Source: Acutalibacteraceae bacterium
Lineage (GTDB): Bacteria > Bacillota > Clostridia > Oscillospirales > Acutalibacteraceae
DNA: 61,232 nt
Reading direction: 5' to 3'
Assembly: GCA_045531145.1 (NCBI GenBank)
Contig: JAZSDM010000007.1
Location: 1 to 61,232 of the forward strand
Positions within the stretch are counted from its first letter, which is position 1. Each line of letters opens with the position of its first letter. Position numbers and translations under genes: made by a program. The notes beneath the pieces are model-generated. The model was given only the letters and a program-made list of their open reading frames with translations. It was not told where the DNA came from and searched no databases. Positions 6,985-46,160 of this stretch are shown piece after piece.

Positions 6985-8806
6985 TAAAACACCTCAACAT
7001 ACTTTCAGTATCTAAACCGTTTGATTTTAGCGCAGAAGCAACTGATGCTGCCGGTACAAATTTATTTTCGACTGCGTGAATATTGTAGTTTCCATTATAT
7101 CCGCAAGAATTAAGTGCGGCTGACAAATGTTCGGCAATACCACCGCTTTTAACAGATTCTTCAAAGAAGTGAATTTCGTCAAAGTCTTTTAAAGTGTCAA
7201 CTAATTCTTGACTCAACGGATAGATTTTATTTAGTTTAATAACATTGATTTCTGGAGAAAAAGCCTTAGCGTCATAAGCATTTGAAAAAAGTCTGCCATA
7301 GGTTATGATGGCTTTTTTACTGTCACCTTTTAATACTGTAAAATCTGATTTATAGTCAATAGATTCGCCAATCGGCTTTTCACATCCGCGCGGATAACGA
7401 ATAGCCGTAATTTTTTTAGCATTTGAAGATTTTTTTATAAGGTATTTAAGTTCGTCATAGTGTGAAGGAGAATAAACTTCGGTATTAGGTATTGAAGTTA
7501 AAAATGAAACATCAAATAAACCTTGGTGTGTTTCCCCGTCTTCACCGACAATTCCTGCTCTGTCAACAAGAAAGCAAACAGGTAAATTATCAATCGCGCA
7601 ATCGTGAATAATTTGGTCATATGCCCTTTGTAAAAATGAAGAATACACCGCAAAATAAGGCTTCATACCGCCTTTTCTAAGTCCTGCGGAAAAAGTGACT
7701 GCGTGTTGTTCTGCAATACCAACATCAAAAAATCTGTTTTTGTAAAGTTGTGCAAAGCGTGACAGTCCTGTGCCAGAAGTCATTGCGGCGGTTATGGCAC
7801 AGATGTTTTGGTCATTTTCTGCTAATTCGCAAAGTGTGTCACCTGCAACATCAGAAAAAGAAACGCTATTACTATTGCCTGCACCCTCTTCAATATCAAA
7901 CGGAGAAACCCCGTGATAATTTTTAGGGCTTGTTTCAGCGTAGGAATAACCTTTACCTTTAGTTGTGATAACATGCACGATAGAAGGACGGTTATAGTTT
8001 TCTGCAATTTTAAAAAGGGATTCCATTGCAGCAACATTATGACCGTCAACAGGTCCTAAATAATTAAATCCAAGAGCAGAAAAAACATTGTTTTTATATA
8101 TTATACTTTTGAAAATTTCTTTAACCGAGTAAAATGCGTTGTTAATATATTTACCAACAAACGGAATGTTAAGCAAAAATCTGTTTAAAGCAAATTTAAA
8201 ATGGTGATAATGCGGTTTGTTACGCATCTTTGTAAGACTGCGTGATAAAGCACCAACATTACGCGAAATTGACATTTTATTATCATTAAGCACAATGATA
8301 AAATTATTTTTACCGCTACCAACATTGTTAAGCGCCTCATAAGCCATACCGCCAGTGAGTGCACCGTCACCGATAACGGCAATAGCAGTACCGTTTTGAC
8401 CTGTAAGCCTTTTTGCTCGGTAGATACCGTATGCCGCAGAGATGGAATTACTGCTGTGTCCTGTAATAAAGGCATCGTGTTCGCTTTCGGTCGGTTTCAT
8501 AAAACCTGAAATACCGCCTTCGGTACGCAAGGTGTGGAAATTTTCAAATCTTCCTGTTAAGAGTTTATGTGTATAAGACTGATGGCCTACATCGAAAATT
8601 ATAGCGTCTTCAGGTGAATTGAAGGTTCTGTGAAGAGCAACTGTCAATTCAACAGAGCCTAAATTAGATGCCAAATGACCGCCGTTTTTTGAAACGGTTT
8701 CAATAATACAACCCCTTAATTCTTCACATAGAGCGGTGGTTTGGCCGATATTCAGTTTTTTAACATCTTCTGGGGAATTAATTTTGCTTAAAATCGGATA
8801 ACTCAC
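6977..8806 (-). CDS. dxs: 1-deoxy-D-xylulose-5-phosphate synthase
   Basis: 609 aa; TPP motif GDGALTGGMAYEALN and transketolase-like middle and C-terminal domains. Confidence 0.95.
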   Translation of the reverse strand: MSYPILSKINSPEDVKKLNIGQTTALCEELRGCIIETVSKNGGHLASNLGSVELTVALHRTFNSPEDAIIFDVGHQSYTHKLLTGRFENFHTLRTEGGISGFMKPTESEHDAFITGHSSNSISAAYGIYRAKRLTGQNGTAIAVIGDGALTGGMAYEALNNVGSGKNNFIIVLNDNKMSISRNVGALSRSLTKMRNKPHYHHFKFALNRFLLNIPFVGKYINNAFYSVKEIFKSIIYKNNVFSALGFNYLGPVDGHNVAAMESLFKIAENYNRPSIVHVITTKGKGYSYAETSPKNYHGVSPFDIEEGAGNSNSVSFSDVAGDTLCELAENDQNICAITAAMTSGTGLSRFAQLYKNRFFDVGIAEQHAVTFSAGLRKGGMKPYFAVYSSFLQRAYDQIIHDCAIDNLPVCFLVDRAGIVGEDGETHQGLFDVSFLTSIPNTEVYSPSHYDELKYLIKKSSNAKKITAIRYPRGCEKPIGESIDYKSDFTVLKGDSKKAIITYGRLFSNAYDAKAFSPEINVIKLNKIYPLSQELVDTLKDFDEIHFFEESVKSGGIAEHLSAALNSCGYNGNYNIHAVENKFVPAASVASALKSNGLDTESMLRCFNG

Positions 8807-8821
8807 CGTTACACGTCCTTC

Positions 8822-9700
8822 TTAATAATTTCGTTTTAATAAGTATTCTGTAAGCGCTTTTAAAACTGTTTTGTCACCTTCAAAATAATCCAAGGCATTT
8901 AATGCGTTATTTGTGATTTCTTTGGCATATTCTTTTGCTTTTTCTACACCAAAAAGGGTTACAAAAGTAGTTTTATTATTTTTTTCATCACTGCCAACAG
9001 GTTTGCCTAAAAGTTTTTCATCAGCGGTGCAGTCAAGAATATCGTCAATGATTTGAAAAGCAACACCTAAATCTCTGGCATAATTATTGGCATTAATCAT
9101 AGATGCTTTATCGGTTTTACCTGCGGCAATTAGACCTAAAGCCGCCGCCGCAATAAGTAGACCTGAGGTTTTACGAGAATACATATCAATAAGTTCTTCA
9201 GCGGTAGGAGTTCTCTTTTCAAACTGTAAATCAAGTACCTGACCGCCTATCATTCCGTGAAGACCTGCATTATGCGATAAATATTCGACCGCCTTAACAA
9301 TTCGCTCACTTGGTAAATCTGCTTTAGCTACAATACTAAAGGCTTCTGTAAGTAAAGTATCCCCCGCAAGAAGTGCTGTATCCTCGCCGAATGCTTTATG
9401 ACATGACGGCTTTCCCCTTCTCATATCATCGTTGTCCATACAGGGTAAATCGTCGTGAATAAGGGAATATGTATGAATCATTTCAAGTGCTATAGCAAAA
9501 TTATACGAATCCTCTGCTTTACCGCCCGCAAGTTTGCAAAATTCAGCAGTTATAACAGGGCGAATTCTTTTACCGCCTAAAAGCAGACTGTATCTTGCAG
9601 CTTTTAAAACCTCGTTATAAGGATATTCTTCAAGCGGAAGAAGTTTATCTATTTCTTGTTCAAAAACTGTTCTGTAACGGTTTAAAAGATTATTAATCAT
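8822..9700 (-). CDS. ispA: (2E,6E)-farnesyl diphosphate synthase / polyprenyl synthetase
   Basis: Aspartate-rich motifs DDLPCMDNDDMRRG and IIDDILD. Confidence 0.9.
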   Translation of the reverse strand: MINNLLNRYRTVFEQEIDKLLPLEEYPYNEVLKAARYSLLLGGKRIRPVITAEFCKLAGGKAEDSYNFAIALEMIHTYSLIHDDLPCMDNDDMRRGKPSCHKAFGEDTALLAGDTLLTEAFSIVAKADLPSERIVKAVEYLSHNAGLHGMIGGQVLDLQFEKRTPTAEELIDMYSRKTSGLLIAAAALGLIAAGKTDKASMINANNYARDLGVAFQIIDDILDCTADEKLLGKPVGSDEKNNKTTFVTLFGVEKAKEYAKEITNNALNALDYFEGDKTVLKALTEYLLKRNY

Positions 9701-9707
9701 AAAACCT

Positions 9708-9905
9708 TTACTCCTTGCTATCGGTTAAAGCGGTTATTTTAATTTCTGCGCTTTCAAGTGTTTTTTTGCATTTGCTTGATAGTTCTATTCCCTTTTCAAA
9801 AAGCTTGATTGCTTCATCTAATGAAACATCGTTTTTTTCTAAAGCAGAAACAATTTTTTCAAGCTCTGCCAAAGATTTTTCAAAGTCAAAAGTATTTTCA
9901 GCCAT
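9708..9905 (-). CDS. xseB: exodeoxyribonuclease VII small subunit
   Basis: 65-aa helical protein (FEKSLAELEKIV...LDEAIKLFEKG), immediately downstream of xseA. Confidence 0.9.
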   Translation of the reverse strand: MAENTFDFEKSLAELEKIVSALEKNDVSLDEAIKLFEKGIELSSKCKKTLESAEIKITALTDSKE

Positions 9906-9906
9906 A

Positions 9907-11130
9907 TTATTCTCCTTTAGAATTAACAGTACAGTTCAGTTTACCGTCGGTCAAAGTTAGGGTTAAGTTATCCCCTTCATTGATGTCCTTTGTGCTTGAA
10001 ATCACCTTACTGTTATGCTCTGCAACAGCAAATCCGCGTGATAAAACTTTTAACGGACTTAATGCATCAAGCTTTGAAATAGTGTTTGAAAGTCTTGTTT
10101 TGTTGTTATTTAAAATATTTTGATAGTTTGAAAGCAAATTATCTGTCAAGTTATCAAGTACTTCGTATCTTGTAGAAACAAGCATATCAATTGTTTTTCT
10201 AAAAATAAGCGAATTTGTAATTTTTTCAAGCCTTACTTTATTCAAGTTGTATTTCGCATAAAGTGAAGTTTTTAAGTTGGATATATAAGAATTAATTTTT
10301 ACATTTATTTCATTAATATCAGGAACTGCAAGCTCAGCTGCGGCAGAAGGTGTTGGTGCGCGCAAATCGGCAACAAAATCGCATATTGTAAAGTCTGTTT
10401 CGTGCCCTACAGCCGAAATTACAGGTATTGGTGATTCATAAATCTTTCGTGCCAAAAGTTCACTGTTAAATGCCCAAAGGTCTTCTATAGAGCCGCCGCC
10501 GCGCCCAATGATTATTGTATCACAGTTGCCGAGAGCATAAACTCTTTCGAGCGCATTTATCATATCCCCTACAGCTTTTTCGCCTTGAACAGCAACAGGA
10601 CAAAGTAAAATTTCGGCTAAGGGCCAACGGCGTGATAAAATATTGATAATATCCTGCACCGCAGCACCTGTATCAGAGGTTATAACTGCAATGCGGTTTG
10701 GGAATTTTGGTATTGCGCGTTTTGATTCGCTATCAAACAGTCCCTCTTTTGAAAGACGTTCTTTAATTTGTTCAAACTGAAGCGCAATATCACCTTTACC
10801 GAACTCATGCATTTCTTGTGCGTAAAATTGGTACTGCCCGTCCTTTTCATACAAGGAAACTTTACCCCTTAAGGTTACCTGTAAACCGTCACACACGGCA
10901 AATTTTACGTACTGTGCAAAACCTTTAAACATAACGCAACGGATGGATGCATCCTTATCTTTTAAAGTAAAATACAGATGACCGCTTGCGTAGTGGTTTT
11001 TAAAGTTGGAAATTTCGCCGGTTACGGTAATATCGTTAAGACGTACATCGCCTTCAATTAAAGATTTAACAAATAAATTAAGCTGACGTACCGTTAATGA
11101 ATTGTTTTGCATATTATAAAGACTTAGCAA
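9907..11130 (-). CDS. xseA: exodeoxyribonuclease VII large subunit
   Basis: OB-fold N-terminus, GRGGGSIEDLWAFN catalytic region, C-terminal coiled coil. The true start may be the second Met (about 11112). Confidence 0.92.
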   Translation of the reverse strand: MLSLYNMQNNSLTVRQLNLFVKSLIEGDVRLNDITVTGEISNFKNHYASGHLYFTLKDKDASIRCVMFKGFAQYVKFAVCDGLQVTLRGKVSLYEKDGQYQFYAQEMHEFGKGDIALQFEQIKERLSKEGLFDSESKRAIPKFPNRIAVITSDTGAAVQDIINILSRRWPLAEILLCPVAVQGEKAVGDMINALERVYALGNCDTIIIGRGGGSIEDLWAFNSELLARKIYESPIPVISAVGHETDFTICDFVADLRAPTPSAAAELAVPDINEINVKINSYISNLKTSLYAKYNLNKVRLEKITNSLIFRKTIDMLVSTRYEVLDNLTDNLLSNYQNILNNNKTRLSNTISKLDALSPLKVLSRGFAVAEHNSKVISSTKDINEGDNLTLTLTDGKLNCTVNSKGE

Positions 11131-11506
11131 CGGTAGACAAAATACCGTTTACAAAAGAAGCATCATCTTTAGTGGCATACTTTTTGCAAAGTTCAACCGC
11201 CTCGTTAATTGAAACCGAAACAGGAATGTCGTCCATAAATTTAATTTCAAAAAGTGCAAGTCTTAAAACAGATAAAGCGGTTTTGGAAATTCTTGAAATA
11301 CTCCAACCTATAGCATTTTCTGAAACTATATTATCAAGTGTTTCAAGGTTATCATAAACACCAGCAAATACAGTTTTTATATAATCGTCAGGTTCTAAAT
11401 CTCTTACTTCGTTTGCAAGTTCAAGTATTTCTTCAACCGATTCAGTGTTGAAAACTTTTTCAAAAATTAATATAAATGCTTCTTCTCTTGCTTGTTTACG
11501 TTTCAT
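11114..11506 (-). CDS. nusB: transcription antitermination factor NusB
   Basis: 130-aa all-helical NusB-family sequence (RKQAREEAF..., SINEAVELCKKY). Confidence 0.9.
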   Translation of the reverse strand: MKRKQAREEAFILIFEKVFNTESVEEILELANEVRDLEPDDYIKTVFAGVYDNLETLDNIVSENAIGWSISRISKTALSVLRLALFEIKFMDDIPVSVSINEAVELCKKYATKDDASFVNGILSTVAKSL

Positions 11507-11589
11507 ACCGCACCTCTAATATATTTATACAGTATTAATTATATATTAAAATATGCATATTTTCAAGCATATTATTGAATTTTATGCAT

Positions 11590-11626
11590 AAAAAAGACAC
11601 CGATTTTTAAAAAATCAGTGTCTTTA
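11590..11626 (-). terminator. rho-independent terminator ending the his operon
   Basis: Minus strand: AAAGACACTGATTTTTT/AAAAATCGGTGTCTTT stem followed by a T run, 12 nt after the hisIE stop. Confidence 0.75.
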
Positions 11627-28570: not shown

Positions 28571-28600
28571 AAAGCACCACGATTAGTATCGTGATGCTTT
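28571..28600 (-). terminator. hairpin terminator behind the displaced spoIVB 3' end
   Basis: Minus strand: AGCATCACGATA-CTAA-TCGTGGTGCT immediately after the fragment stop codon (28602). Confidence 0.6.
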
Positions 28601-28601: not shown

Positions 28602-28756
28602 CTATGATGCTTTATTTAATTGTTCATTTGCAACACTTTGCGCCGTTTCTAACATATTCTCTGCGAAGATGGCGTAGCCTTTTGTCGGGTCATCAACGAG
28701 AACATGGGTTACAGCGCCGATTAATTTACCGTTTTGGATAATCGGGCTGCCTGACA
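28602..28756 (-). pseudogene. spoIVB: displaced 3' fragment of spoIVB (copy 1; encodes ...[50 protein letters not shown])
   Basis: 28673-28756 is an 84-nt run identical to 37604-37687 of the intact gene. No N-terminal 380 codons. The 28602..28871 track ORF is a fusion with unrelated sequence. Confidence 0.85.
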
Positions 28757-28908
28757 CAAGTGTGTCAATATAGGACCAACATGTTTTTTGAAATTTATAC
28801 TTTACTACTCCCCTTAAACGCAAAGAAACCGCGCTAAATCGGCACGATTTCTTTGTATTATAGGGATTCAATTTTTGATTATACGTGTTATATTAGGACC
28901 AACAAATA
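28752..28908. repeat. conserved island-end module, copy 1
   Basis: Core palindrome TGACACA-AG-TGTGTCA. CAATATAGGACCAACA (to 28781). Hairpin CAAAGAAACCG...CGGCACGATTTCTTTG (28821-28855). GTGTTATATTAGGACCAACAAATA (28885-28908). The same blocks and spacing recur at 34409-34566. Confidence 0.8.
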
Positions 28909-28911: not shown

Positions 28912-29745
28912 CTAATTAAATACAGATTTAAGTAAATTCATACTTTCAACAGTTGGTTTTTCAAAAATACAAGCATCTTTTCCAATAGCACAATATTTGT
29001 TTTCCCCCATAGCGTGATATGGCAAAAGTTCCACCTTTTCCGGAGCCCCGCAATTATCTAAAAAATCCTTAATTTTTTGCATTTCTTCTATACTGTCGTT
29101 AACATCGGGGATAATGGGAAAACGAATCCATAATTTCGCCTTTCTTTCAAACAACCTTTTAAGATTGTCTAAAATCAATTCATTACCCACACCCACATAC
29201 TTTTTGTGTTTATCGGTGTCAAAGATTTTAATGTCATAGAGGAACAGATCGGTATAAGGTAGAATTTTTTCAAAACTTTCAAAGGGTATATGTCCTGCAG
29301 TGTCAACTGCGGTATGTATTCCGTTTTCTTTGCATTTTTTAAGGATTTCACAAAGAAAATCTATCTGTAACATACATTCTCCGCCTGAAAATGTGACACC
29401 ACCGCCTGAGTTTTCATAGTAGGCTTTATCTTTGATAATCTCATCAAAGACTTCGTCCACAGTATATTCCTTGCCACAGACTTTACGTGCATCAACAGGG
29501 CAGTAAAAGGTACATTTTCCGCATAAATCACACTTTTCAAAATTATACGGACAAACTTCTTTACATTTTCCGCAACCTTTGCACTTGTCCTTATAAAACA
29601 TCATCTGCGGTTTAAAATCCTGACTTTCGGGGTTGTGACACCAAGCGCATTTTAAATTGCAGCCTTTAAAAAACACAGTTGTTCTAATACCAGGACCGTC
29701 AACAAAGGAATTTCGTTCAATATCAAAAATTACAGCAGTAGACAT
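28912..29745 (-). CDS. glycyl-radical enzyme activating protein (radical SAM)
   Basis: CNLKCAWCHN (CxxxCxxC) plus two ferredoxin-like Cys clusters (CKGCGKCKEVCP, CDLCGKCTFYCP). ATG at 29745 after TAGGAG. Confidence 0.92.
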   Translation of the reverse strand: MSTAVIFDIERNSFVDGPGIRTTVFFKGCNLKCAWCHNPESQDFKPQMMFYKDKCKGCGKCKEVCPYNFEKCDLCGKCTFYCPVDARKVCGKEYTVDEVFDEIIKDKAYYENSGGGVTFSGGECMLQIDFLCEILKKCKENGIHTAVDTAGHIPFESFEKILPYTDLFLYDIKIFDTDKHKKYVGVGNELILDNLKRLFERKAKLWIRFPIIPDVNDSIEEMQKIKDFLDNCGAPEKVELLPYHAMGENKYCAIGKDACIFEKPTVESMNLLKSVFN

Positions 29746-29756
29746 TTTTGCTCCTA

Positions 29757-30899
29757 TCAATAAGTTAAATTATAGTTATACAATTCTTTTAAATCTTTAA
29801 AAATATCTTCAAAATCACTATTATCAATCAGTTCCGCTCTTACAAAACGGTAAAGCATAGAACGTAACCCTTGTGAAGGCGAAGAGAGTAAATGTGTTCC
29901 AAAATAGATGCTGATTTCGTTTTGGGTATCTACAGCAAGATATGCGCCGGCCGCTCCGCCCCAACCAAAATCAATATTCTTCTGGTCGCCTTTTGGGCAG
30001 CGCACACCCAAACCATAGCCATGAGTATCCTTGGTCCAATAGGTTCTTTTTTGATGCTCGCTTAGACGGTCGGTAATCATTAGCTTAAGAGTTTCGGGTT
30101 TTAATAATTTGTGGGTGCGAAGACCTTCCAAAAATTTTATGTAATCGTCAACTGTTGAAATACCGCCTGCTCCACCGCTTGCGTACTCGCTACCGATTTT
30201 ATAATTAACTATAGGCTTGCCAACATTAACTGCTTTACCATTTTCAAATCTATATTGCGGTGCAATAGTTTCAATTTCAGTTTCGGGTAACATAAATGTA
30301 GAATCATTCATCCCTACAACATCAAAAATATTCTTTTTAACATAGGTTTCGAATTTTTCGCCCGATACCACCTCAACAAATGCCGCCAAAACATCGTGGC
30401 AAAGGCTATATTCCCATCTATCGCCAGGTTCAAATAATAACGGTTCTTTTGCTAAATATTTCATCGCCTCTCGAGTAGGACATTTTCCTTCTGTTTGAGT
30501 AATAGCATTTTTCAATTGCGGAGAATAGCAGTTATAGGAAAAACCTGCCGTCATTTCAAATAAGTGTTTTATTAAAATCGGGTTTTCGGCTTTTTTAATA
30601 CCATCGTCTGTATTCACCGTCATTTCTTTAAATTCCGGCATATAATCCGAGAGTTTGTCCTCAAGCGAAAACAATCCCTTTTCCCATAACTGTAAAGCTG
30701 CTGTACAGGTGATAACCTTGGAACAGGAATAAATGTTATATCTTTCTTTGCCGTTAATGGGTATTTTATTCTCTAAATCAGAATATCCGCCCATATATCT
30801 CAGCACACATTTACCGTCTTTGTGCACACAAAGATCAAAGCCAGGCACAACACCCATTTCTAAAAATGAATCACAAAATTTTTTAATATTTTCAAACAT
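29757..30899 (-). CDS. serine hydrolase (beta-lactamase / class C esterase fold)
   Basis: S-x-x-K motif YSCSKV near the N-terminus; about 380 aa. Lies between the GRE and its activase. Confidence 0.8.
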   Translation of the reverse strand: MFENIKKFCDSFLEMGVVPGFDLCVHKDGKCVLRYMGGYSDLENKIPINGKERYNIYSCSKVITCTAALQLWEKGLFSLEDKLSDYMPEFKEMTVNTDDGIKKAENPILIKHLFEMTAGFSYNCYSPQLKNAITQTEGKCPTREAMKYLAKEPLLFEPGDRWEYSLCHDVLAAFVEVVSGEKFETYVKKNIFDVVGMNDSTFMLPETEIETIAPQYRFENGKAVNVGKPIVNYKIGSEYASGGAGGISTVDDYIKFLEGLRTHKLLKPETLKLMITDRLSEHQKRTYWTKDTHGYGLGVRCPKGDQKNIDFGWGGAAGAYLAVDTQNEISIYFGTHLLSSPSQGLRSMLYRFVRAELIDNSDFEDIFKDLKELYNYNLTY

Positions 30900-30999
30900 A
30901 GATATCACCCTAAGTATTTTTATTGCTTTTATAATAACACATTTTTTCAGAAAAACAACTTTTTTCGAATAGGCATTATTTGCATTACCTATCGGACAT

Positions 31000-31125
31000 T
31001 CAAGATTTGCTATTCTGAATCATCATTATCCAAAACAGATTGCACCCTTTGAAAAACACCGTTGTTCTTATCCCCGGTCCGTCAACATAAGAATTTCGTT
31101 CAATATCAAATATCGCAGCTTTCAT
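31000..31125 (-). pseudogene. 5' remnant of a second GRE-activase gene
   Basis: MKAAIFDIERNSYVDGPGIRTTVFFKGCNL parallels MSTAVIFDIERNSFVDGPGIRTTVFFKGCNL of the intact activase. It breaks off just before the CxxxCxxC motif and starts 4 nt after the GRE stop. Confidence 0.8.
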
Positions 31126-31128
31126 CTT

Positions 31129-33252
31129 TTACATCTCTTTTTCTGTTCTTGTAATTATTTCGTCCTGTAAATCTTCATTAAGTAAAACAAAGTAATCAGA
31201 AAAACCGGAAACACGCACTCTTAAATTTTTATATTTTTCAGGAGTAATTTGTGCATTTTTTAAATCTTCTTTCGATACATAGTTCAGTTGATAATGAAGA
31301 CCGCCTAATTTAAAGTATGTTTCAAAAAGCTTTACAAGTTTATCAAAATTATCATCGTCTTTTACAAGCTGCTCGTCAACCAAAACATTGGTAACCGTCG
31401 AACCGCAAAAGCACAGATGCGCATTCAGCTTAGCAACAGAGCTTAAAAGTGATGTAAGACCTTCGCGGTCGCGCCCTTCGTTTTGTCCGATTCCGTAGGA
31501 AATCATATCGCCGTCGTATCTTCCATCAGGCGTTGCCTTGGTTACATCTCCAAACCATTTATGATGCTGATTGTAGCCAATCAAATTTCCGTGGAAAAAT
31601 TTATATCCCATGTCGGATTCTTTGTCTTTCATGTATTGATATACAGATGCGCCGAAAAGATTTCCGCAGTAATTGGATGTTTCATCGTCATTGCCGAAGA
31701 AAGCGCCTGTTTGCGCTATTTCGGCATGGAGCTTTTCATAACCCTGCCAATTAGATTTTAAAGCATCAACAACTGTTTTCATAGAAATCTTTTTTTCATC
31801 AAAAACAAACTGCTTTATAACTGCAAGTGAATCAATAACCGTTGAGAGACCTATAAGGCTAAGTTCAGCAATTGCATTTTTTGCCCCACCTTGCGTGACA
31901 CTTTTGCCACGCTCTATTGAACCTTCAAAAAACATTGTACTAACCAAGTTTACATCTCTTGCACGTACAGCCTGAAATTTATTGTAATATTCTATATCTT
32001 TTTTTAGAACATTATGAAGTTCCCGTTCAAATACTTTGTAAAATTCATCAAAGGTTTTCACATTGCATATTTCTTCTGCACAATTATGAAAAGTGTTTTC
32101 AATACTTTTAGCAATATTGGTTGTACAACCCCCCATGAAAATTCCTCCCGGCAACTGCGGTTCATTACAACCAACCATTGTATATTTGCACGCTAATTCA
32201 TAGGGAAAACCGGCAATTTCCGTAAATGCTTTTATTCTTGGCTCATCATTTACGAAAGCAATTCTTTTGTTGGTGTCTTTTCTTTCACAGTCCATTACAT
32301 ATTTCAGAACTTCTTCGGGCGTTTTCTTTGTCCAGCGAAGGGAAATTTCAGGAATGAATGTGGGAAGCTCCAGCATACTGTCCAGAACAAGCCTTGAAAG
32401 TTCATTGAAACCATCTTCACCATTTTCAAGGTAGCCTCCAATACAGAAATGAGACTCACCACCTCGATAAAAACGGTCTGATTTTATGGATATTCTTGCC
32501 TGAAGCATTAAGAAAAGCTCTTGCAAATATGCTTTTGCATCCTCTTTGGTTAGAGTGCCGTTTGCAATTTCGTTTACGTAAAATGAATACAAATATCTAT
32601 CTATTGTACCTATACTATCAGGAACGAAGGCATAGATAACGTAAACTGTCAGCACCGCTTCATAAAAGCTTTGCGCAGGGTTTGCAGGCACGTTTTTAAG
32701 CGCCTTTGAAAGTTTGACAAGGTTTGCTTTATATTCCGGATTTTCGATCTCTTGGGCTTTTTTTAATGCAGCATCAGAACACTTTTTTGCCCAGCCGATT
32801 ATTGCATCTGCAATAATATCAATCCCGTCTAAAAACTCAAGTTCTTCTTTTTGACTATGTGTTTTTTTAGATTGTGCAATTTCTGCCTTTAAACCGTTAA
32901 TTCCAATTTTAATTACCTTTTCAAAATCGGCAACGCTGTGCTGCCATTCAAATGTGCAAAGCCCGTCTACAGGATTATTATAATATTCTTTGTATATCTT
33001 TCGCCAGTTTTCATGACCGCAACGATTGAATATGTCTCCCATTACGTCACCCTCAAAACGCAGATAGCCTGTCAAAGCCGTTAATTCGCTCACAAAGGGT
33101 TTTTGATTTAAGATATATTCCTTTGCCCTTTTTGCACTCATTATAACAGGCGACAGGAATATATCCTCCCTGTCATATTCCGTTTTGGTATGCTCGATAT
33201 ACATCTGACCTTTCACTGTCATATCAGCTAACTTTTTTATTCTTTCATTCAT
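31129..33252 (-). CDS. glycyl-radical enzyme (PFL-like family), substrate unknown
   Basis: C-terminal glycine-radical motif RVRVSGFSDYF and Cys-loop VGCNEP. 707 aa, shorter than the characterised GREs I recall. Confidence 0.88.
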   Translation of the reverse strand: MNERIKKLADMTVKGQMYIEHTKTEYDREDIFLSPVIMSAKRAKEYILNQKPFVSELTALTGYLRFEGDVMGDIFNRCGHENWRKIYKEYYNNPVDGLCTFEWQHSVADFEKVIKIGINGLKAEIAQSKKTHSQKEELEFLDGIDIIADAIIGWAKKCSDAALKKAQEIENPEYKANLVKLSKALKNVPANPAQSFYEAVLTVYVIYAFVPDSIGTIDRYLYSFYVNEIANGTLTKEDAKAYLQELFLMLQARISIKSDRFYRGGESHFCIGGYLENGEDGFNELSRLVLDSMLELPTFIPEISLRWTKKTPEEVLKYVMDCERKDTNKRIAFVNDEPRIKAFTEIAGFPYELACKYTMVGCNEPQLPGGIFMGGCTTNIAKSIENTFHNCAEEICNVKTFDEFYKVFERELHNVLKKDIEYYNKFQAVRARDVNLVSTMFFEGSIERGKSVTQGGAKNAIAELSLIGLSTVIDSLAVIKQFVFDEKKISMKTVVDALKSNWQGYEKLHAEIAQTGAFFGNDDETSNYCGNLFGASVYQYMKDKESDMGYKFFHGNLIGYNQHHKWFGDVTKATPDGRYDGDMISYGIGQNEGRDREGLTSLLSSVAKLNAHLCFCGSTVTNVLVDEQLVKDDDNFDKLVKLFETYFKLGGLHYQLNYVSKEDLKNAQITPEKYKNLRVRVSGFSDYFVLLNEDLQDEIITRTEKEM

Positions 33253-33415
33253 GTTAATAAACCCCTTCTCACAAAAAGTTTTACATTTGTAGTTTATTCC
33301 AAATACTTATTACAGTAAATAGACAAAATACTTTATTTGCACTTTTCGATACTGTTTAATGGAATTATATATTGCATTATGACCGTTATATGTTAAAATA
33401 TAGGTGGGTGGTACT

Positions 33416-34201
33416 ATGAACAATAAATTTGCAATAACAGACATTAGACGGGTTGTTCTCGTAGGCGAAGATGAATACAAAGAAACTGTAACATCATTTT
33501 CTCATAACAAATGGTGTGCCAATGAGCTGATTTATAATCTTTCAGGGGAATCCACTGTATTTTTTAATGGAAAATCCTTAGAGAATACAAAAGATACGAT
33601 TCGATTTCTTCCTCAAGGTGAAATTTCCGAATATGTTGTTAAAAGAAAAGAACGCGGGGAATGTATAGATATATGTTTTGATTCTGATTCACCTATTGCA
33701 GAAGAGGCTTTTATTTTAAAACTCAGTCAAAGTGAAAAAATCAAAAGTCTTTTTAAAAAGATTTTTTCAGTTTGGGTTGCAAAGGGAGACGGATACTATT
33801 TAGAATGTGTTTCCATTATTTACAAAATATTTGCAGAACTGCAAAAGAAAAATTATATACCTGAAAATCAGATTCTTGCCATAAAACCTGCCATCGATTA
33901 CATAGAAAACCATTTTCTTGAGAAAAAAATTACAGCAGAAGAACTTACCTCCTGCTGTGAAATCAGTTATCCTTATATAAAAAAATTATTCGTTAAAAAG
34001 TTTGGTATGCCACCGATAAAGTATAGCATACAACTTAAAATCAACTATGCCTGCGACCTTTTAAAATCAAATTTGTATACAATTTCACAAATTGCTGAAA
34101 TGTGCGGTTATAATGATATATACTTTTTCAGCCGACAGTTTAAAGAATATATGGGTATCTCCCCCACGGCATTTATTGAAAAATATAAATCCTCAAAATA
34201 G
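33416..34201 (+). CDS. AraC-family transcriptional regulator
   Basis: N-terminal cupin-like domain; C-terminal double HTH (ISQIAEMCGYNDIYFFSRQFKEYMGISPTAF). Divergent from the GRE gene. ATG at 33416. Confidence 0.88.
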   Translation: MNNKFAITDIRRVVLVGEDEYKETVTSFSHNKWCANELIYNLSGESTVFFNGKSLENTKDTIRFLPQGEISEYVVKRKERGECIDICFDSDSPIAEEAFILKLSQSEKIKSLFKKIFSVWVAKGDGYYLECVSIIYKIFAELQKKNYIPENQILAIKPAIDYIENHFLEKKITAEELTSCCEISYPYIKKLFVKKFGMPPIKYSIQLKINYACDLLKSNLYTISQIAEMCGYNDIYFFSRQFKEYMGISPTAFIEKYKSSK

Positions 34202-34204
34202 TAA

Positions 34205-34237
34205 AAGCATCCCGAAAATAATCGGGATGCTTTTTTA
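34205..34237 (+). terminator. rho-independent terminator of the AraC gene
   Basis: AAGCATCCCGA-AAATAA-TCGGGATGCTTTTTT. Confidence 0.8.
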
Positions 34238-34282
34238 TGAAACGTCTTTCAAACGGGACGTCGAGGCGCCGTCCCCTACATT

Positions 34283-34413
34283 ATTCGCAATAGATTGCGC
34301 TGTTTCAAGCATATTCTCTGCGAAAATAGCGTAACCCTTGGTTGGATCATCGACTAATACATGCGTAACGGCTCCAACTAACTTACCATTCTGGAGTAAA
34401 GGGCTACCCGACA
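34283..34413 (-). pseudogene. spoIVB: displaced 3' fragment of spoIVB (copy 2, diverged; ...[42 protein letters not shown])
   Basis: 5 substitutions over 42 aligned residues versus the intact gene, with many silent nucleotide changes. The reading frame then runs into a GC-rich repeat (VGDGASTSR). Confidence 0.8.
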
Positions 34414-34566
34414 CGAGTGTGTCAATATAGGACCAACACAGTTTTTGTAACAACGATTTTCAATTTTTCCTTTAAACGCAAAGAAACCGTACCAATTAGG
34501 CACGATTTCTTTGAATGATAGGAAATTAACTTTTTATGGTATGTGTTATATTAGGAACAACAAATA
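34409..34566. repeat. conserved island-end module, copy 2
   Basis: GACACG-AG-TGTGTC core. CAATATAGGACCAACA. Hairpin CAAAGAAACCG...GGCACGATTTCTTTG (34479-34513). GTGTTATATTAGGAACAACAAATA (34543-34566). Confidence 0.8.
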
Positions 34567-34635
34567 GAGACATTTAAGCGTCTTCCAATATCATGAATTG
34601 CACATTTTATTTTTGTTATTTTAATTCTACTCAAA

Positions 34636-36057
34636 CTATTTGGTTTCGCTTATATTAATCCACATTGCAGGTCTAACGGTTATGCTCTCGTTATCAGGTG
34701 GTAAGGAGTTAGTGCTAATTCCGCCCTTACCTGAGACGATGCTATGATTTGAATTCATATCGGGATTGGTTCTTAACCACCACCATGCATGCTTTCCATC
34801 TCCATAGCTTATGTCCGCACCCATTTTTTTAGCATACTCAGTTGGTTTTACTTTTCGTGATTTACTTGTTGGAAAATATTTTTCAATCTCCTCTTCACTA
34901 AAAACATAAAGAAAATCGTTTGTTGGATTCTTTGTTACTTTAATCGTTTTTACTCCTTGAATTACTGCACCGCTTTTTGTTGTGAACGAAGAACCGTTCC
35001 GTTGATGTGTATAATCATAGTTTTCTACCATAGTTTTTTGAATGTGTTTTTTCTCGAAATCACTAAACGCCTCATTATAGAAAGAATCGTTCAACCAATT
35101 CCTGAGATAGCTTGTTTCCCAAGTGGCGCTCGATTTAAAAGCCGGGGTGTAAGAAAGAACATCTTCATTAGCAAAAGGTATACAATCTAATCCATATTTA
35201 CTAATCAAAAGTGCTTTTTCTTCTGCCTTATCAAGAACTAACCATTCAATATTTTCAGATCCGTTATTGAAATCTCCATCTTGCTCATAAGAACCGAACT
35301 CCACATAATCACCAACATTTGCTTTTTGCATCTTTTGCAGCTTTATTGGCATGTCGATTTCTTTCAATTTATCAGCGCTATCTTTATATTTAGGTATAGC
35401 TTTCAAAAGAATTTCAGCATTAATAAATTCGTTATCATCAGTAGATTCAATTGCTTTTTTATAGAATAATTCTTTGACTTTTCCGTCATATTCAAACCAT
35501 TTGCTATCAGAATATGATTTAGTTGCTTTTTCAATCTTTCCATTAGATAAAAGATTTTGATAATATGAAAATCTTCCCAACGGAATGAAAACGAAATAAG
35601 TCAGTACGAGTAATACAATTAAAGATATACTAGAAATTGAAAATATAATTGCTCTTTTTTTAGATTTAGCTCTCTTTTGATTGATTTTCTCTTCAACTAA
35701 AGAATAATACTTTTTAAGCTGTTGCTTGTAATTATCATCAGCATATTTAACAGCCATTTTAAAATCATCAAATTTAGTGAGTTTCTTATTAACCGAAGTA
35801 AGGCTTACTAAATCAGATAATTTAAGTTTCGCTAATAATCTTCCAATATACGCTCTTGCCTTATTATCATTATTCACAATGGCAAAATCAAATATCTCTT
35901 TAGCTTTTTTCCATTCTTTTAATTCAAGATAAGTATAACCTTTTTCTATATCCGAAATAGGATTCGATTCAGCAATTACCTTTTCGACAATACTTCCACA
36001 AAACGGGCAATATTCACTGTCGTTAGGCACATTGTTATTACACTGCTTGCAAATCAT
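34636..36057 (-). CDS. zinc-ribbon / TPR-like / single-TM protein with DUF6273-like extracellular domain
   Basis: N-terminal CKQC...CPFCG, TM helix AIIFSISSISLIVLLVLTYFVFI, C-terminal IEWLVL...WWWLRT...VRPAMWI signature. Confidence 0.75.
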   Translation of the reverse strand: MICKQCNNNVPNDSEYCPFCGSIVEKVIAESNPISDIEKGYTYLELKEWKKAKEIFDFAIVNNDNKARAYIGRLLAKLKLSDLVSLTSVNKKLTKFDDFKMAVKYADDNYKQQLKKYYSLVEEKINQKRAKSKKRAIIFSISSISLIVLLVLTYFVFIPLGRFSYYQNLLSNGKIEKATKSYSDSKWFEYDGKVKELFYKKAIESTDDNEFINAEILLKAIPKYKDSADKLKEIDMPIKLQKMQKANVGDYVEFGSYEQDGDFNNGSENIEWLVLDKAEEKALLISKYGLDCIPFANEDVLSYTPAFKSSATWETSYLRNWLNDSFYNEAFSDFEKKHIQKTMVENYDYTHQRNGSSFTTKSGAVIQGVKTIKVTKNPTNDFLYVFSEEEIEKYFPTSKSRKVKPTEYAKKMGADISYGDGKHAWWWLRTNPDMNSNHSIVSGKGGISTNSLPPDNESITVRPAMWINISETK

Positions 36058-37289
36058 TTAATATCCTCCTTTATAACCCTTAAACCACACTTGTGACAAA
36101 AATCACTGTCATCTAAAAGTCTTGTTCCACATTTACGGCAGAATAAAACTTTTGGAGAGCTTTTAATTTCAACCTTTTTTTCTATAATGGGTTGTTCATA
36201 GTTTGATTTAATTTCTTTTATTTCTTCGAATTGTGCAATAGGTTCATTTTTTGGTATAGTTTCTTCAATTACATTTACTTTAAATCTGCCGATAAAATTC
36301 TCATTATTTTCAAATTCATTTTCAGTAATTTCAACATCTTTTTTATTGTTTTCTTCTGCAATTAGTTCTTGGTATATTTCATCGGTTGAAATATCGTATT
36401 TCAATCCAATATCATTTTTTGATTTATTTATCAAAATTTTATAATTTGTAATGCTCCATAAAAAAATTGCACTTCCAGGTGCTACTCCTCCTTTAAGAAA
36501 GAACATAACAAAAAATGCGATAATTGCATATATAATAGTTATCTTTTTTGCTTTATTTTTAGGTAACGCCTGTTTTTTGATTTTATATCTATAAATTATT
36601 ATAGGCAAGGAATATACGGATATTGTGATAATCAAACTTAAAATTATATTAAGAAAGTTTATTTGCAAGTTGCCGTCACTGTTTATGTATATAACGTCAT
36701 CACTTGTATCAGCAACATATGGATATTTAACACTATTCATCATTGTTACAAATTCTTGATAATGGTTTTTTTTAGCTAAATCACCAAAATAAAACTGATA
36801 ACAATATCCATTTTCAAAATGTAAAAGCATAGTCATTGTTATATCAGCAGAAATATCGAAGACGGACATTTCTTTATCTACAGATATTTCTAAATATTCT
36901 GTTCCACTATAATGCACTGTATCAATTTCTGCATCAAGATTATCGAAGCCCATCAGTTGTAGTATTTCTTCTTTTGTGAAATTATCCATAAGTTCTGAAT
37001 GATTTATGTCAGAACGAGAATAACCAACCTTATCGCTATCTGGCATTTCTTCCCATACATCAGCATATCCAAACAAAATTGTTCCACCATCTTCATTTTC
37101 AGGTGAATACGCAACTTTAATAAATTCTCTGTCTTCGCTTAAAGGTGTTTCGTTCCAACCTTGCGGAATAGCAAAAGAAATTCCCGTAACTGAATCTTTA
37201 TATGTATTTGAACTTTCAGCACTAACCGAAACAGCAAAAGAAAGCACTATTAGAATAGTAATAAAAAATGTCAATAATCTTTTAAACAT
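36054..37289 (-). CDS. signal-peptide / multi-TM protein with C-terminal zinc ribbon
   Basis: Signal peptide ending VSA-ESS, extracellular domain, TM helices, cytoplasmic tail ending CRKCG...CHKCG. ATG at 37289 after GAGGA. Its stop overlaps the next gene's start (ATGA). Confidence 0.7.
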   Translation of the reverse strand: MFKRLLTFFITILIVLSFAVSVSAESSNTYKDSVTGISFAIPQGWNETPLSEDREFIKVAYSPENEDGGTILFGYADVWEEMPDSDKVGYSRSDINHSELMDNFTKEEILQLMGFDNLDAEIDTVHYSGTEYLEISVDKEMSVFDISADITMTMLLHFENGYCYQFYFGDLAKKNHYQEFVTMMNSVKYPYVADTSDDVIYINSDGNLQINFLNIILSLIITISVYSLPIIIYRYKIKKQALPKNKAKKITIIYAIIAFFVMFFLKGGVAPGSAIFLWSITNYKILINKSKNDIGLKYDISTDEIYQELIAEENNKKDVEITENEFENNENFIGRFKVNVIEETIPKNEPIAQFEEIKEIKSNYEQPIIEKKVEIKSSPKVLFCRKCGTRLLDDSDFCHKCGLRVIKEDIK

Positions 37290-37315
37290 AAAAATCCTCA
37301 CACCCTATTGTTTAT

Positions 37316-37344
37316 ATTATATAACATTTTGACATTTTTTTCAA
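37316..37344 (-). promoter_or_regulatory. sigma-A-type promoter for the island A gene pair
   Basis: Minus strand: TTGAAA (37339-37344), 17 nt, TATAAT (37316-37321). Confidence 0.45.
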
Positions 37345-37383
37345 TTATAAATATAGACACATTTCAAGAACATAAATAAGGCT

Positions 37384-37527
37384 CCCTCTGACGAGGGTGC
37401 TATTGTAGAGGCGGGTTTCCATGACCGCCCGTTTCATATATCATATATTCGGGAGGGCGCAGAGACCCTCCCCTACAATTTAAAAAATTAATCGATGTTT
37501 CGTAGGGGCAGGTTTCTATGCCCGTTT
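37384..37527. repeat. cluster of three GC-rich GTAGGGG-hairpin (REP-like) units
   Basis: TGTAGAGGCGGG-tttccatgac-CGCCCG; GGGAGGG-cgcagagac-CCTCCCCTACA (inverted); CGTAGGGGCAGG-tttctat-GCCCG. Strongly GC-rich in an AT-rich background. A fourth unit lies at about 34252-34282. Confidence 0.7.
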
Positions 37528-37532
37528 ATATT

Positions 37533-38777
37533 TTATGATGCTTCTTTTAATTTTTGTTCAGCAACACTTTGCGCGGTTTCCAGCATATTTTCGGCGAAGA
37601 TGCCGTAGCCTTTTGTCGGGTCATCAACGAGAACATGGGTTACAGCGCCGATTAATTTACCGTTTTGGATAATCGGGCTGCCTGACATACCTTGCACGAT
37701 ACCGCCGGTTAAAGATAAAAGGCGTTCGTCTGTTATTGTTACTAAAATATTTTGCGTTTTGGAATGGTAATTTGCGGTTCGGATTTTAATTTCACAAGAA
37801 TATACTTTAGGCTCGCTGCCGTCAACTGTGGAAATTATTTGCGCTTCACCGTCTTTAATTTCCTGTTTTAAAGCGATTTCGGTTAATTTTTGAAAAGCCA
37901 AATCACCGCTCAGGCGTGAGTAAATACCGATTTCACTGTTTAAACTGATATCACCGAGTGTCTTGTAATTTAGTTTACCCGTTAGTTTACCTGGGCTACC
38001 TACTTCACCTTTTTCAACCGATAAAATCTCTGCCGAAACTATTTGCCCCGAATTGATTTTCAGCAATTCTTCGGTATCACTGTCACACACACCGTGCCCT
38101 AAACCGCATATAACACCGCTTGCAGGGCTGTAAAATGTCAGAATACCTATCCCTGCTGAACTGTCCTTAACCCAGATACCGATTTTATAAGTCCCGGTTT
38201 CTGCCGATTTTACAGCACAAAATGAAAAATGAATTTTTGTACTGTCACGCAAAACTTCAAACTTCATATTTTTACCGTTTGAATTTTCTACAATTTTTAC
38301 TAAGTCTTCGTTTGTATAAACTTTTTGTCCGTCAACCGATACAATATAGTCGCCCGTTTTTATACCCGCAGTTTTTGCAGGGTTTTTGTTACCGCTTTGG
38401 GTAGCAACATCTGTAATTTCTGTCACAAGGACACCTTCGGTGTAAATTTTCATACCAAACGGACTGCCGAGAACTGCTACATGCAATTCGTCAACAACCT
38501 CAACGCTGACCTGTGTAATTGGTATTATACCAAATGCTTTAAGGTCAACAGAAAATTCTTCACCAACGCTTTTTGAGTTGCTTATTTGTGAAAGCTTTGC
38601 ACCGTTATAAACTGCAGTTACGGGCACAAATGACGAAATTTTAAGTGTTTCGCCTTTTTTGATTTTAAAATCGTCACTTAAATTGATATTAAGATAAATT
38701 ACCGCAGAAAATACTGTCATACAAAACAGTGTGAATATTAAAAATAATGTTTTTGTTAATATGCGAGCAAATTTCAA
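37533..38777 (-). CDS. spoIVB: SpoIVB peptidase (S55 family sporulation signalling protease)
   Basis: N-terminal TM, PDZ region, peptidase domain with [20 protein letters not shown]. Likely TTG start at 38777 after GGGAAGTGA; the track ORF extends to 38834. Confidence 0.9.
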   Translation of the reverse strand: MKFARILTKTLFLIFTLFCMTVFSAVIYLNINLSDDFKIKKGETLKISSFVPVTAVYNGAKLSQISNSKSVGEEFSVDLKAFGIIPITQVSVEVVDELHVAVLGSPFGMKIYTEGVLVTEITDVATQSGNKNPAKTAGIKTGDYIVSVDGQKVYTNEDLVKIVENSNGKNMKFEVLRDSTKIHFSFCAVKSAETGTYKIGIWVKDSSAGIGILTFYSPASGVICGLGHGVCDSDTEELLKINSGQIVSAEILSVEKGEVGSPGKLTGKLNYKTLGDISLNSEIGIYSRLSGDLAFQKLTEIALKQEIKDGEAQIISTVDGSEPKVYSCEIKIRTANYHSKTQNILVTITDERLLSLTGGIVQGMSGSPIIQNGKLIGAVTHVLVDDPTKGYGIFAENMLETAQSVAEQKLKEAS

Positions 38778-38835
38778 AAAAATCACTTCCCATCTTATAT
38801 TTTGCACAGAAAATGATTTTTTTATAAAAAACAAA

Positions 38836-42928: not shown

Positions 42929-42938
42929 TAAAACCAAT

Positions 42939-43090
42939 GCAGAGTAGAATACCGAGCGTTAAGTGCTGTACGGACGGGGAGTTGCTGTACGGACGAAGAT
43001 TTTCGCGGTTCGGTTTTCGCATCCCGCTGCCGTGTAATATCTGGTTATTTGTTTGCCTCCTATTATTCGGAAAAACGGGTAATAGGAGGT
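42939..43090 (+). promoter_or_regulatory. THF (tetrahydrofolate) riboswitch with SD-sequestering / terminator hairpin
   Basis: GCAGAGUAG...CGAGCGUUAAGUGC...GGGGAGUUGC...ACGAAG...GCAUCCCGCUGC matches the THF-I aptamer pattern. Hairpin CCTCCTATTATTC/GGGTAATAGGAGG (43056-43089) covers the AGGAGG of folT. Confidence 0.8.
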
Positions 43091-46027: not shown

Positions 46028-46036
46028 TTCTTTGTT

Positions 46037-46160
46037 CTCTGATGCTGACGGAAAAGTGATAAATTTCACCAAGTGGAGCACCACATGAATCAGGGAATAT
46101 ATTTTGCCGACCGTCTGGGCGCTCTTATTCCACAAGGATTAAGTGCGCCCTTATTTTTTT
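46037..46160 (+). promoter_or_regulatory. ZTP (pfl-motif) riboswitch with intrinsic terminator
   Basis: CUGAUGCUGACGGAA...GUGGAGCACCACAUGAAUCAG...GCCGACCGUCUGGGCG closely parallels the Fusobacterium ulcerans ZTP aptamer. The 3' GGGCGC is shared with the terminator stem (46117-46150) plus a T run. Confidence 0.8.

Follow-up and report, generated by a model that had tools for sequence, protein, structure and literature searches.

The closest systems described so far are the conjugative elements of Streptococcus that carry serine-integrase triplets, which insert inside genes with repeats of 2-8 bp (Ambroset et al. 2016, PMC4701971), and the ssrA islands of Dehalococcoides, among which those without an integration module have been proposed to be cis-mobilizable by accretion (McMurdie et al. 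2011, PMC3146451). The Dehalococcoides islands lie in tandem downstream of one conserved gene and are bounded by a repeat of the 3' end of that gene. A like arrangement is seen downstream of spoIVB in the DNA considered here, a stretch of 61,232 nt from an Acutalibacteraceae bacterium (assembly GCA_045531145.1, contig JAZSDM010000007.1, positions 1-61,232, forward strand), referred to below as the window. Two copies of a short module are present in it, each next to a displaced 3' fragment of spoIVB. Judging from its junctions, its neighbours and the sites reconstructed from other genomes, the module is most likely the element-side half of an attR-type attachment site for a large serine recombinase (LSR).

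An earlier note, made from the letters of the window alone, had described four blocks in both module copies (28752-28908 and 34409-34566): a palindrome, two direct repeats, called here box 1 and box 2, and a hairpin. All four were found in both copies, at the coordinates given there. The features of the modules are as follows.

28755..28756, minus strand: putative crossover dinucleotide of attR copy 1 (TG on the sense strand); the stretch identical to the intact gene stops at 28756
28757..28781, plus strand: P-type half-site of copy 1, C-AAGT-GTGTCAATATAGGACCAACA, containing box 1
28821..28855, minus strand: hairpin of copy 1, terminator-like on the sense strand by folding energy, 3' of the activase gene
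28885..28904, plus strand: box 2 of copy 1 (GTGTTATATTAGGACCAACA), a second half-site-like repeat in the orientation of box 1
34412..34413, minus strand: putative crossover dinucleotide of attR copy 2 (TG on the sense strand), from alignment with attL, attB and attR elsewhere
34414..34438, plus strand: P-type half-site of copy 2, C-GAGT-GTGTCAATATAGGACCAACA, containing box 1
34479..34513, minus strand: hairpin of copy 2, a 15-bp stem on the sense strand by folding energy
34543..34562, plus strand: box 2 of copy 2 (GTGTTATATTAGGAACAACA)

Box 1, GTGTCAATATAGGACCAACA, occupies 28762-28781 in copy 1 and 34419-34438 in copy 2. Box 2, GTGTTATATTAGGA(C/A)CAACA, is 123 bp from it in copy 1 and 124 bp in copy 2. 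The hairpin arms pair 28821-28835 with 28841-28855 and 34479-34493 with 34499-34513, and their loops are unlike. The palindrome reads TGACACA-AG-TGTGTCA at 28752-28767, with GACAC-GAGT-GTGTC at 34410-34423 as its counterpart in copy 2. A degenerate box pattern (3 or fewer mismatches) has 6 matches in the window, against 0.15 expected, and 4 of these are the boxes. The other two (13446 and 13581, minus strand, 135 bp apart) were considered as the opposite end of the island and were set aside as chance matches because both are inside hisA and in the wrong orientation.

The similarity between the copies extends leftwards, through approximately 155 bp from the 3' coding part of spoIVB (minus strand) and then a terminator, thus the repeated unit is larger than the module. 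It consists of terminator, spoIVB 3' fragment and module, and the spoIVB stretches of the two copies differ mainly at synonymous sites. At gathering thresholds, no Rfam family matches at the module. BLAST searches of phage and plasmid collections with the module returned weak matches to the spoIVB coding part only, and none in plasmids. Two other explanations of parts of the repeat were rejected: the boundaries of the junction violate the splice-site rules of group I and group II introns, and no similarity to spoIVB was seen by eye in the spacer between the boxes, which had been considered as a decayed spoIVB fragment.

A scan of species-representative genomes with the box pattern identified at least 119 loci, here given L numbers, and the counts of junctions and fragments rest on these loci and are lower bounds. 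At least 94 times, box 1 comes straight after a spoIVB 3' fragment read on its antisense strand, a box 1|B' junction, and the arrangement is present in at least about 90 genomes of gut Clostridia. The loci listed come from human and ruminant gut genome bins, mostly Oscillospirales; the taxa are mostly Acutalibacteraceae, Oscillospiraceae, Faecousia and Ruminococcus, with some Lachnospirales. The displaced fragment begins exactly at residue 383 in 102 of the 117 fragments listed, and a P box is found no more than 45 nt upstream in 83 of 100 testable fragments among the matches listed. An intact spoIVB is upstream, as in the window, at 35 or more loci, and at least 23 loci have arrays of two or more fragments within 8 kb. 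The 20-mer of box 1 is invariant while the adjacent spoIVB codons drift. The longest array seen among the matches listed, on contig JAZKZG010000079.1 (L107, L090 and L084 are this one contig), has an intact spoIVB and three cassettes, each of which ends in a box and a 3' fragment.

These junctions bear out much of what the earlier note had proposed. The module recurs as a conserved island end, not confined to two places but found in about 90 further genomes, where boxes and spacing are kept. The hybrid nature of the site, half spoIVB and half element and therefore attR-like, agrees with box 1 abutting a displaced 3' fragment while an intact spoIVB lies upstream. The boxes also behave like recombinase half-sites. 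Box 1 is at the exact spoIVB breakpoint across the listed junctions.

The palindrome does not share in this conservation. The 4 nt between box and core are GAGT at 60 of the listed junctions, GTGT at 10 and GCAC at 8, with others making up the rest. A palindrome forms only with a TCN codon for this Ser (52 of 94 listed junctions); with AGC (37 of 94) there is none. This dependence on the Ser codon makes the 7-2-7 palindrome an incidental by-product of TG-TCN meeting GTGTC, and no conserved feature. It had been put forward as the crossover core, a role it loses here: the core that the sites share lies 4-5 bp further left and is the TG of the Met codon.

It had also been suggested that the module be sought elsewhere and its neighbouring genes tabulated. 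When this was done, LSR genes were found to adjoin the module in autonomous relatives. They are upstream of box 2 and in the same orientation in L068, L063, L069, L129, L130-L135, L142 and L143, with either 30-60 bp or two small genes between the end of the LSR gene and box 2. In L068, L063 and L069 an LSR gene of 536 amino acids, oriented as spoIVB, stops just before the module. Three tandem LSR genes (552, 568 and 536 amino acids) are present in metagenome contig L129 and in assemblies L130-L133, L142 and L143, and each of the proteins has Resolvase, Recombinase and Zn_ribbon_recom domains. The nearest solved proteins to these LSRs are TnpX and SprA. After the triplet come, in some loci, a DUF4160 and DUF2442 pair, then box 2, a terminator hairpin, box 1 and a spoIVB fragment. 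The pair, DUF4160 with DUF2442/HTH_59, is between the third LSR gene and box 2 at 9166-9869 of L142 and 8003-8706 of L143. The DUF2442/HTH_59 gene, the only one of the pair examined in that locus, is at 5569-6057 of L069. These two genes might act like a toxin-antitoxin system or as a directionality module.

The opposite junction was found in five loci (L036, L041, L075, L139 and L140). Here spoIVB is truncated after ...GGIVQGM and is followed by TGAGT-GTGTTATAATAGGACCAACA, which is the box inverted (P'). The remark in the earlier note that no inverted copy was noticed at the opposite island ends is therefore true of the window, where the pattern scan found none in the cassettes, but does not extend to the autonomous elements, whose far end is marked by one. 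L139 belongs to a relative of the window organism in which the upstream genes come in the same order (groEL, OGG, DUF6062, DUF624, PRC, spoIVB), and past the box it has PrgI, NlpC/P60 and a gene of 683 residues that runs off the contig. In L139 (10001-20194), as in L140, spoIVB is cut at 364 amino acids by a conjugative element with DUF5348, NlpC/P60 and PrgI, and the gene is truly disrupted. Close relatives of the window organism present three states of the site: a conjugative element inside it (L139), one cassette (L141) and two cassettes (the window). A related triplet element, L136, has a VirB4/TraG-type ATPase. Its triplet (6642-11611; 67% identity, first gene split in two) is at the end of a different conjugative element, which also has M23 peptidase genes. 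That triplet is not beside spoIVB and is without a box, so the recombinase family has other targets.

Joining attR (…TGTTGGTCCTATATTGACACACTCG-TG) to attL (TG-TGAGTGTGTTATAATAGGACCAACA) reconstructs an attP that would be a dyad of ~52 bp, with two arms of 25 bp that agree at 22 of 25 positions. Across 35 intact genes the attB region is conserved, and attB, attL and attR have no sequence in common but the TG of the Met codon; a TGT trinucleotide is not shared wherever the Ser codon is AGC. On the reconstructed sites, a dyad of this length combined with identity restricted to TG is the signature of a serine integrase. A free attP junction had 0 matches in viral contigs and none in the metagenome scan for a P'-type box, which returned one contig, L129. 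Nine box matches in viral contigs were dismissed as chance, being other box variants without spoIVB context.

In the window itself, the intact spoIVB and the two cassettes are laid out as follows.

37533..38834, minus strand: intact spoIVB (S55 peptidase with PDZ domain; Pfam Peptidase_S55, 3e-77; translation)
34414..37685, minus strand: cassette 2, core to core (Pfam)
37533-37685, minus strand: spoIVB 3' end in use, cassette 2
36054-37301, minus strand: Zn-ribbon protein, cassette 2 (Pfam)
34636-36057, minus strand: DUF6273 protein, cassette 2 (Pfam)
34414-34566: module copy 2, within cassette 2
34235..34411, minus strand: displaced spoIVB 3' fragment 2 (tblastn, residues 383-425, 86% identity), starting at the Ser codon
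28757..34411, minus strand: cassette 1, core to core (Pfam)
33404-34201, plus strand: AraC regulator, cassette 1 (Pfam)
31129-33252: glycyl radical enzyme, cassette 1 (Pfam)
29757-30908: beta-lactamase-fold protein, cassette 1 (Pfam)
28912-29760: radical-SAM activase, cassette 1 (Pfam)
28757-28908: module copy 1, within cassette 1
28602..28754, minus strand: displaced spoIVB 3' fragment 1, outermost of the array (tblastn, residues 383-433, 86% identity)

Read in the sense of spoIVB, the order is intact spoIVB, Zn-ribbon protein, DUF6273 protein, module 2 and 3' fragment 2, and onward AraC regulator, glycyl radical enzyme, beta-lactamase-fold protein, radical-SAM activase, module 1, 3' fragment 1 and host genes. 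Both fragments start with residue 383, the catalytic Ser of GIVQGM|SGSP; each lies behind a module and has a terminator (34203-34234 for fragment 2, 28571-28600 for fragment 1). The regenerated attB core, at 37686-37687, reads CA on the plus strand and corresponds to the TG of the Met codon preceding the catalytic Ser. Under the model set out below, the last 51 codons of spoIVB (37533-37685) would be part of cassette 2, and fragment 2 would be the gene end that cassette 1 delivered. There is no recombinase gene in cassette 1 or 2 and no LSR homologue within the window. A search of the stretch from fragment 1 to the host LOG/ATPase genes brought up no more boxes or decayed fragments, and there are none elsewhere in the window. 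The two cassettes have the features of cis-mobilizable, SCC-like (staphylococcal cassette chromosome-like) units: they are without a recombinase of their own, flanked by att sites, and arranged in tandem as related units. The features of serine-triplet conjugative elements are found in relatives (triplets in L129, L130 and L142, conjugation genes in L139 and L136) and not in the window, whose cassettes are not conjugative elements and are presumed to be derivatives or passengers of such.

The cargo of cassette 1 (28912-34201) has the look of a catabolic module complete in itself: it comprises a glycyl radical enzyme and the radical-SAM activase that goes with it, a serine hydrolase of the beta-lactamase fold, and a divergent AraC regulator. 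The cargo of cassette 2 has a 77% match in L099, and a related cassette is at the same position in L141. Cassette 2 also holds GC-rich hairpin repeats. These repeats, GTAG(A/G)GG...C(C/G)CGT, are at 37405-37432 and 37502-37525 on the plus strand and at 34253-34279 on the minus strand, and in this AT-rich window they occur only beside spoIVB 3' ends. The one at 34253-34279 is in frame inside fragment 2 and extends its C-terminus. Rfam matches elsewhere in the window, unrelated to the module, are a THF riboswitch (42938-43031), a ZMP/ZTP riboswitch (46031-46127) and a tRNA gene (229-312).

The sequences compared here show what type of site this is, the recombinases linked to it, the two ends of the element, the unit that runs from core to core, and the arrays; how these come to act together can be proposed as follows. 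Crossover would take place within spoIVB at GIVQGM|SGSP, on the TG of the Met codon that precedes the catalytic Ser. Box 1 and the 5 bases next to the core would form a P half-site of 25 bp, the adjoining spoIVB fragment being the B' half. The autonomous form, seen in relatives and not in the window, is a conjugative element with three tandem LSR genes followed by box 2, a terminator and box 1, with an inverted box (P') at the far end, and its insertion truncates spoIVB. A cassette consists of a TG, a replacement spoIVB 3' end of 51 codons with its terminator, cargo, a module and a second TG. Inserted at the core, it would leave spoIVB intact and regenerate attB. The previous 3' end would be pushed downstream behind a P|B' junction, and arrays would accumulate. 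The hairpin would stop transcription leaving the element.

The cassettes would be moved by recombinases supplied from an autonomous element, and two routes can be envisaged. In the first, by accretion and cis-mobilization, the element would integrate at the regenerated attB and excise via attL and the distal attR, taking the neighbouring cassettes with it. These would be delivered to a new host, where the element would later excise alone, all of these steps being canonical reactions. In the second, a circular cassette with a P|B' joint would recombine directly with attB.

Comparisons between hosts point to the cassette as the unit that moves. L010 and L081 have a common cassette of 1817 and 1818 bp, although the 5' parts of their spoIVB genes are only 60% identical. 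Over the 150 bp that follow the core in the intact gene they are 93% identical; the value is 97% for the cargo, box 2, hairpin and box 1, and falls to 72.5% right after the second core, in the displaced fragment. As identity breaks at both cores, the gene end in use arrived as part of the cassette and displaced the older one. Bounded at both cores, this cassette has moved recently, and site-specifically, between divergent hosts. The same jump in identity at the core is seen between L039 and L044, which have GC-rich hosts. One cassette is the first of the array in L086 and the second in L001, with 98% identity and a sharp break at the right core; these positions fit insertion at a regenerated attB, new units arriving beside the gene. 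The G+C content of third codon positions and pairwise identity, compared between the 5' and 3' parts of 34 intact genes, offer weak support for 3' ends of foreign origin, since the protein segment encoded there is also the better conserved one; the individual cassette pairs above decided the matter.

The cargo consists mostly of regulators and of metabolic enzymes for sugars and other compounds. Among 136 open reading frames (ORFs) in cassettes there are 16 AraC regulators, the commonest cargo, and 3 LSRs. In L063 a truncated LSR gene is inside a cassette, behind an intact spoIVB, and this suggests that cassettes derive from decayed conjugative elements.

The hairpin of the module looks like an intrinsic-terminator-like RNA stem-loop on the sense strand. 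Its make-up is an A-tract, a GC-containing top and a U-rich 3' side. The folding energy is lower on the minus strand than on the plus strand, both in copy 1 (-26.6 against -21.3 kcal/mol) and in copy 2 (-25.4 against -17.8 kcal/mol; z -7.6). Across 22 modules of the window's type, 97.3% of the cells of the 15-bp stem are paired on the sense strand, compared with 84.2% on the plus strand. At the three variable pairs, all 66 cells are standard (G-U, A-U or G-C) on the sense strand, whereas 37 of the same 66 are mismatched (C-A or A-C) on the plus strand. This asymmetry points to an RNA structure in the transcripts leaving the element. It goes against the hairpin being a recombination structure. 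Pairing is complete on the sense strand alone, via G-U. RNAalifold gave a weak consensus and zero compensatory pairs on the plus strand, the signal being on the sense strand only. For the stem, where a test for covariation had been suggested, strand-specific pairing is borne out and covariation is not claimed. In modules with the second of two types of spacer (type ii, as in L129, the window's being type i), a hairpin with a clear U-tract is found at the same place. In type ii there is also a 10-bp inverted repeat (ACAGACGAGTG...CACTCGTCTGT), followed by a T-run, whose loop contains box 2. This second terminator-like hairpin, directly after the last gene, is at about 13112-13160 of L129, 9873-9915 of L142 and 8838-8880 of L130.

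Box 2 is found at 37 of the 94 listed junctions, 113-154 bp from box 1. It is as well conserved as box 1, while the spacers have diverged, and this suggests a function in the autonomous element. In L129, box 2 is identical at 24 of 24 positions to the P' half-site of attL in L036 and L139, and its orientation is that of box 1. More speculatively, one of the three recombinase paralogues might bind it as an accessory site. In L039 and L044 the same cargo is joined to a lone box 1 and to box 2, respectively, indicating that cassettes with box 1 only arise by deletion between the boxes. Between the hairpin and box 2 there is also a conserved ATTATAGG motif (28858-28866 and 34516-34524 in the window; columns 101-108 of the module alignment), which may be what is left of a third box or, on the sense strand, a -10-like hexamer (TATAAT).

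Several observations weigh against the view that the module is part of a serine recombinase site through which cassettes move. There is no recombinase in the window or in most cassettes, so activity in the window is deduced from relatives. A composite of a conjugative element with downstream cassettes was not captured, the recombinase contigs ending within about 150 bp of the core, inside the 3' fragment. Recombination of attP with attB by an LSR disrupts the gene, as in L036 and L139, and leaves the gene end at the left of the cassette unexplained. The second route pairs an attR-type site with attB, which is non-canonical and no known LSR reaction, and neither route accounts for how the first cassette acquired its left-side gene end. 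Box 2 is absent from 57 of the 94 listed junctions and must be dispensable for the persistence of cassettes. With regard to the hairpin, shuffle controls for covariation were not significant, and the U-tract of type i, the window included, is partly within the stem, where a simple terminator scan made no call. Finally, left boundaries are not always at the core. The 3' ends of L001/L086 and of L039/L044 are mosaic, and in the window the intact spoIVB (37591-37686) is identical to fragment 1 (28661-28756) over the 96 bp from the core. This last pattern suggests gene conversion or crossover among direct repeats, and the mosaic ends imply that homologous exchange among the 150-bp repeats also shapes the arrays. 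Beyond the 96 bp, about 10 of 60 positions differ between fragment 1 and the intact gene, and their terminators are unrelated; it is fragment 2 that fragment 1 resembles in its distal part and its terminator.

Taken to its limit, such exchange would mean that cassettes arose once and have since spread purely by homologous crossover, of the Campbell type or double, in the 150-bp spoIVB 3' repeats, with the boxes as inert relics. The mosaic ends and the 96 bp of identity followed by divergence in the window are in keeping with this, as are 3' ends that are more diverged than the cargo in L039/L044 and L001/L086, and the deletion between box 1 and box 2 resembles short-homology recombination. It is nonetheless improbable. 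The L010/L081 cassette is bounded at both TG cores, and the right boundary in L001/L086 is sharp at the core, where a single homologous crossover would extend the identity of the cassette into the displaced fragment. In addition, the 20-mer is invariant, yet the spacers of types i and ii barely align, which argues for selection on the box.

The leading idea of the earlier note was a core with arm sites, the palindrome being the core and boxes 1 and 2 arm-type sites, which implies a tyrosine integrase. Direct repeats about 120 bp apart beside a junction do resemble arm sites, and a restored gene 3' end is typical of tyrosine-integrase islands. However, no tyrosine integrase is among the 25 commonest of the 115 Pfam families matched by the 136 cassette ORFs, and none adjoins any module, where serine recombinase genes are found instead. 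The sequence common to attB, attL and attR is 2 bp, against an overlap region of 6-8 bp for tyrosine integrases, the ~52-bp dyad of the reconstructed attP is typical of serine integrases, and the supposed core is missing wherever the Ser codon is AGC. Such a site is therefore very unlikely.

It is equally hard to see the module as a feature of the transcript alone that plays no part in recombination, whether as a regulatory leader or as the 3' untranslated region of the operon upstream with its terminator. Selection on the hairpin at the RNA level, on the sense strand, and the position of the module directly 3' of the last cargo gene would both be expected from this. That same position means that the module is no leader of the activase gene, as had been considered. 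The boxes, however, are at the exact spoIVB breakpoint at all of these junctions (at least 94) behind unrelated cargo, the inverted box marks the other end of the autonomous element, and Rfam has no match there. A transposon end with several transposase-binding sites, Tn7-like or of another DDE type, is the least probable of all, for although the terminal sequence starts with TGT, the subterminal repeats are co-oriented and the full element has inverted boxes at both ends, no transposase gene was found in the window cassettes or beside the module, where autonomous relatives have LSR genes, the insertion point is a single fixed one in one gene, and the cassettes are one-ended. This agrees with the earlier note, which had argued against a DDE transposon with symmetrical ends.

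With a serine recombinase site as the preferred explanation, a further and more tentative possibility is that spoIVB serves as an integron-like platform for serine recombinases, in which circular cassettes with a P|B' joint are captured at attB by recombinases that a conjugative element supplies. If this is true, attB would be renewed in each round and metabolic cassettes would stack behind an essential sporulation gene in many gut Clostridia. Linked to this, the autonomous element may tie its own retention or excision to sporulation by splitting spoIVB, which B. subtilis expresses in the forespore, the compartment with the germ line.

No mention of spoIVB as an insertion target was found in the literature searched. 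An integration hot spot in the catalytic-site codons of this gene, which is conserved among spore-forming Firmicutes, is thus previously unreported there. Insertion of the autonomous element inactivates a late sporulation signalling gene, linking its carriage to spore formation, and hence to the transmission, of gut Clostridia. The system may be a natural case of how serine integrases mobilize recombinase-less elements while the target gene is kept intact. Those who build genome-engineering tools may also take an interest in it, as it offers a defined family of serine integrases whose short sites, made up of a 25-bp P arm and a TG core, are open to reconstruction.

The autonomous form resembles the serine-triplet elements of Streptococcus (PMC4701971) in having three tandem LSR genes at one extremity together with a conjugation module (L129, L130, L142 and L139 here), and in inserting site-specifically in a protein-coding gene that is disrupted. 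The targets of those elements are mutT, traG and hsdM, and spoIVB is not listed there. They differ also in that most units seen here are recombinase-less cassettes that restore the gene, and the window has no such triplet element.

The ssrA islands of Dehalococcoides (PMC3146451) are similarly driven by serine recombinases, in their case CcrB-like, and some are without an integration module. Their repeat is 20 bp of the transfer-messenger RNA gene, whereas here it is about 155 bp of coding sequence with synonymous divergence, and their integration module is on the attL side. SCCmec and pseudo-SCC elements at rlmH (orfX), moved by CcrAB or CcrC, share with the present system serine recombinases, insertion near the 3' end of a gene with the frame kept, and tandem arrays that include recombinase-less elements with repeated att sites between them (in part from PMC3146451). 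The recombinases here are TnpX/SprA-like triplets and not Ccr. SCC replaces only the last few codons of its target, whereas here 51 codons, including the catalytic Ser, are replaced together with the terminator.

Sporulation genes are also interrupted by LSR elements in the cases of skin (sigK), SPbeta (spsM) and gin (gerE) (PMC5595907, PMC5025042), as spoIVB is in L036 and L139, and SprA is among the nearest solved homologues of the LSRs found here. Those elements sit in mother-cell genes and excise there, while the spoIVB of the window is uninterrupted. With integrons the system has in common promoter-poor arrays of recombinase-less cassettes at one regenerated site beside a fixed platform. 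Integrons, however, use a tyrosine integrase and a folded single-stranded attC, in contrast to the double-stranded half-site boxes, serine enzyme and RNA-terminator hairpin seen here. From these comparisons, the system appears to work like the SCCmec composite islands and the Dehalococcoides ssrA islands, and its autonomous form would belong with the serine-triplet conjugative elements. It is distinct from all of these in its target gene, in the replacement of 51 codons that include the catalytic Ser, and in its two-box end with an internal terminator.

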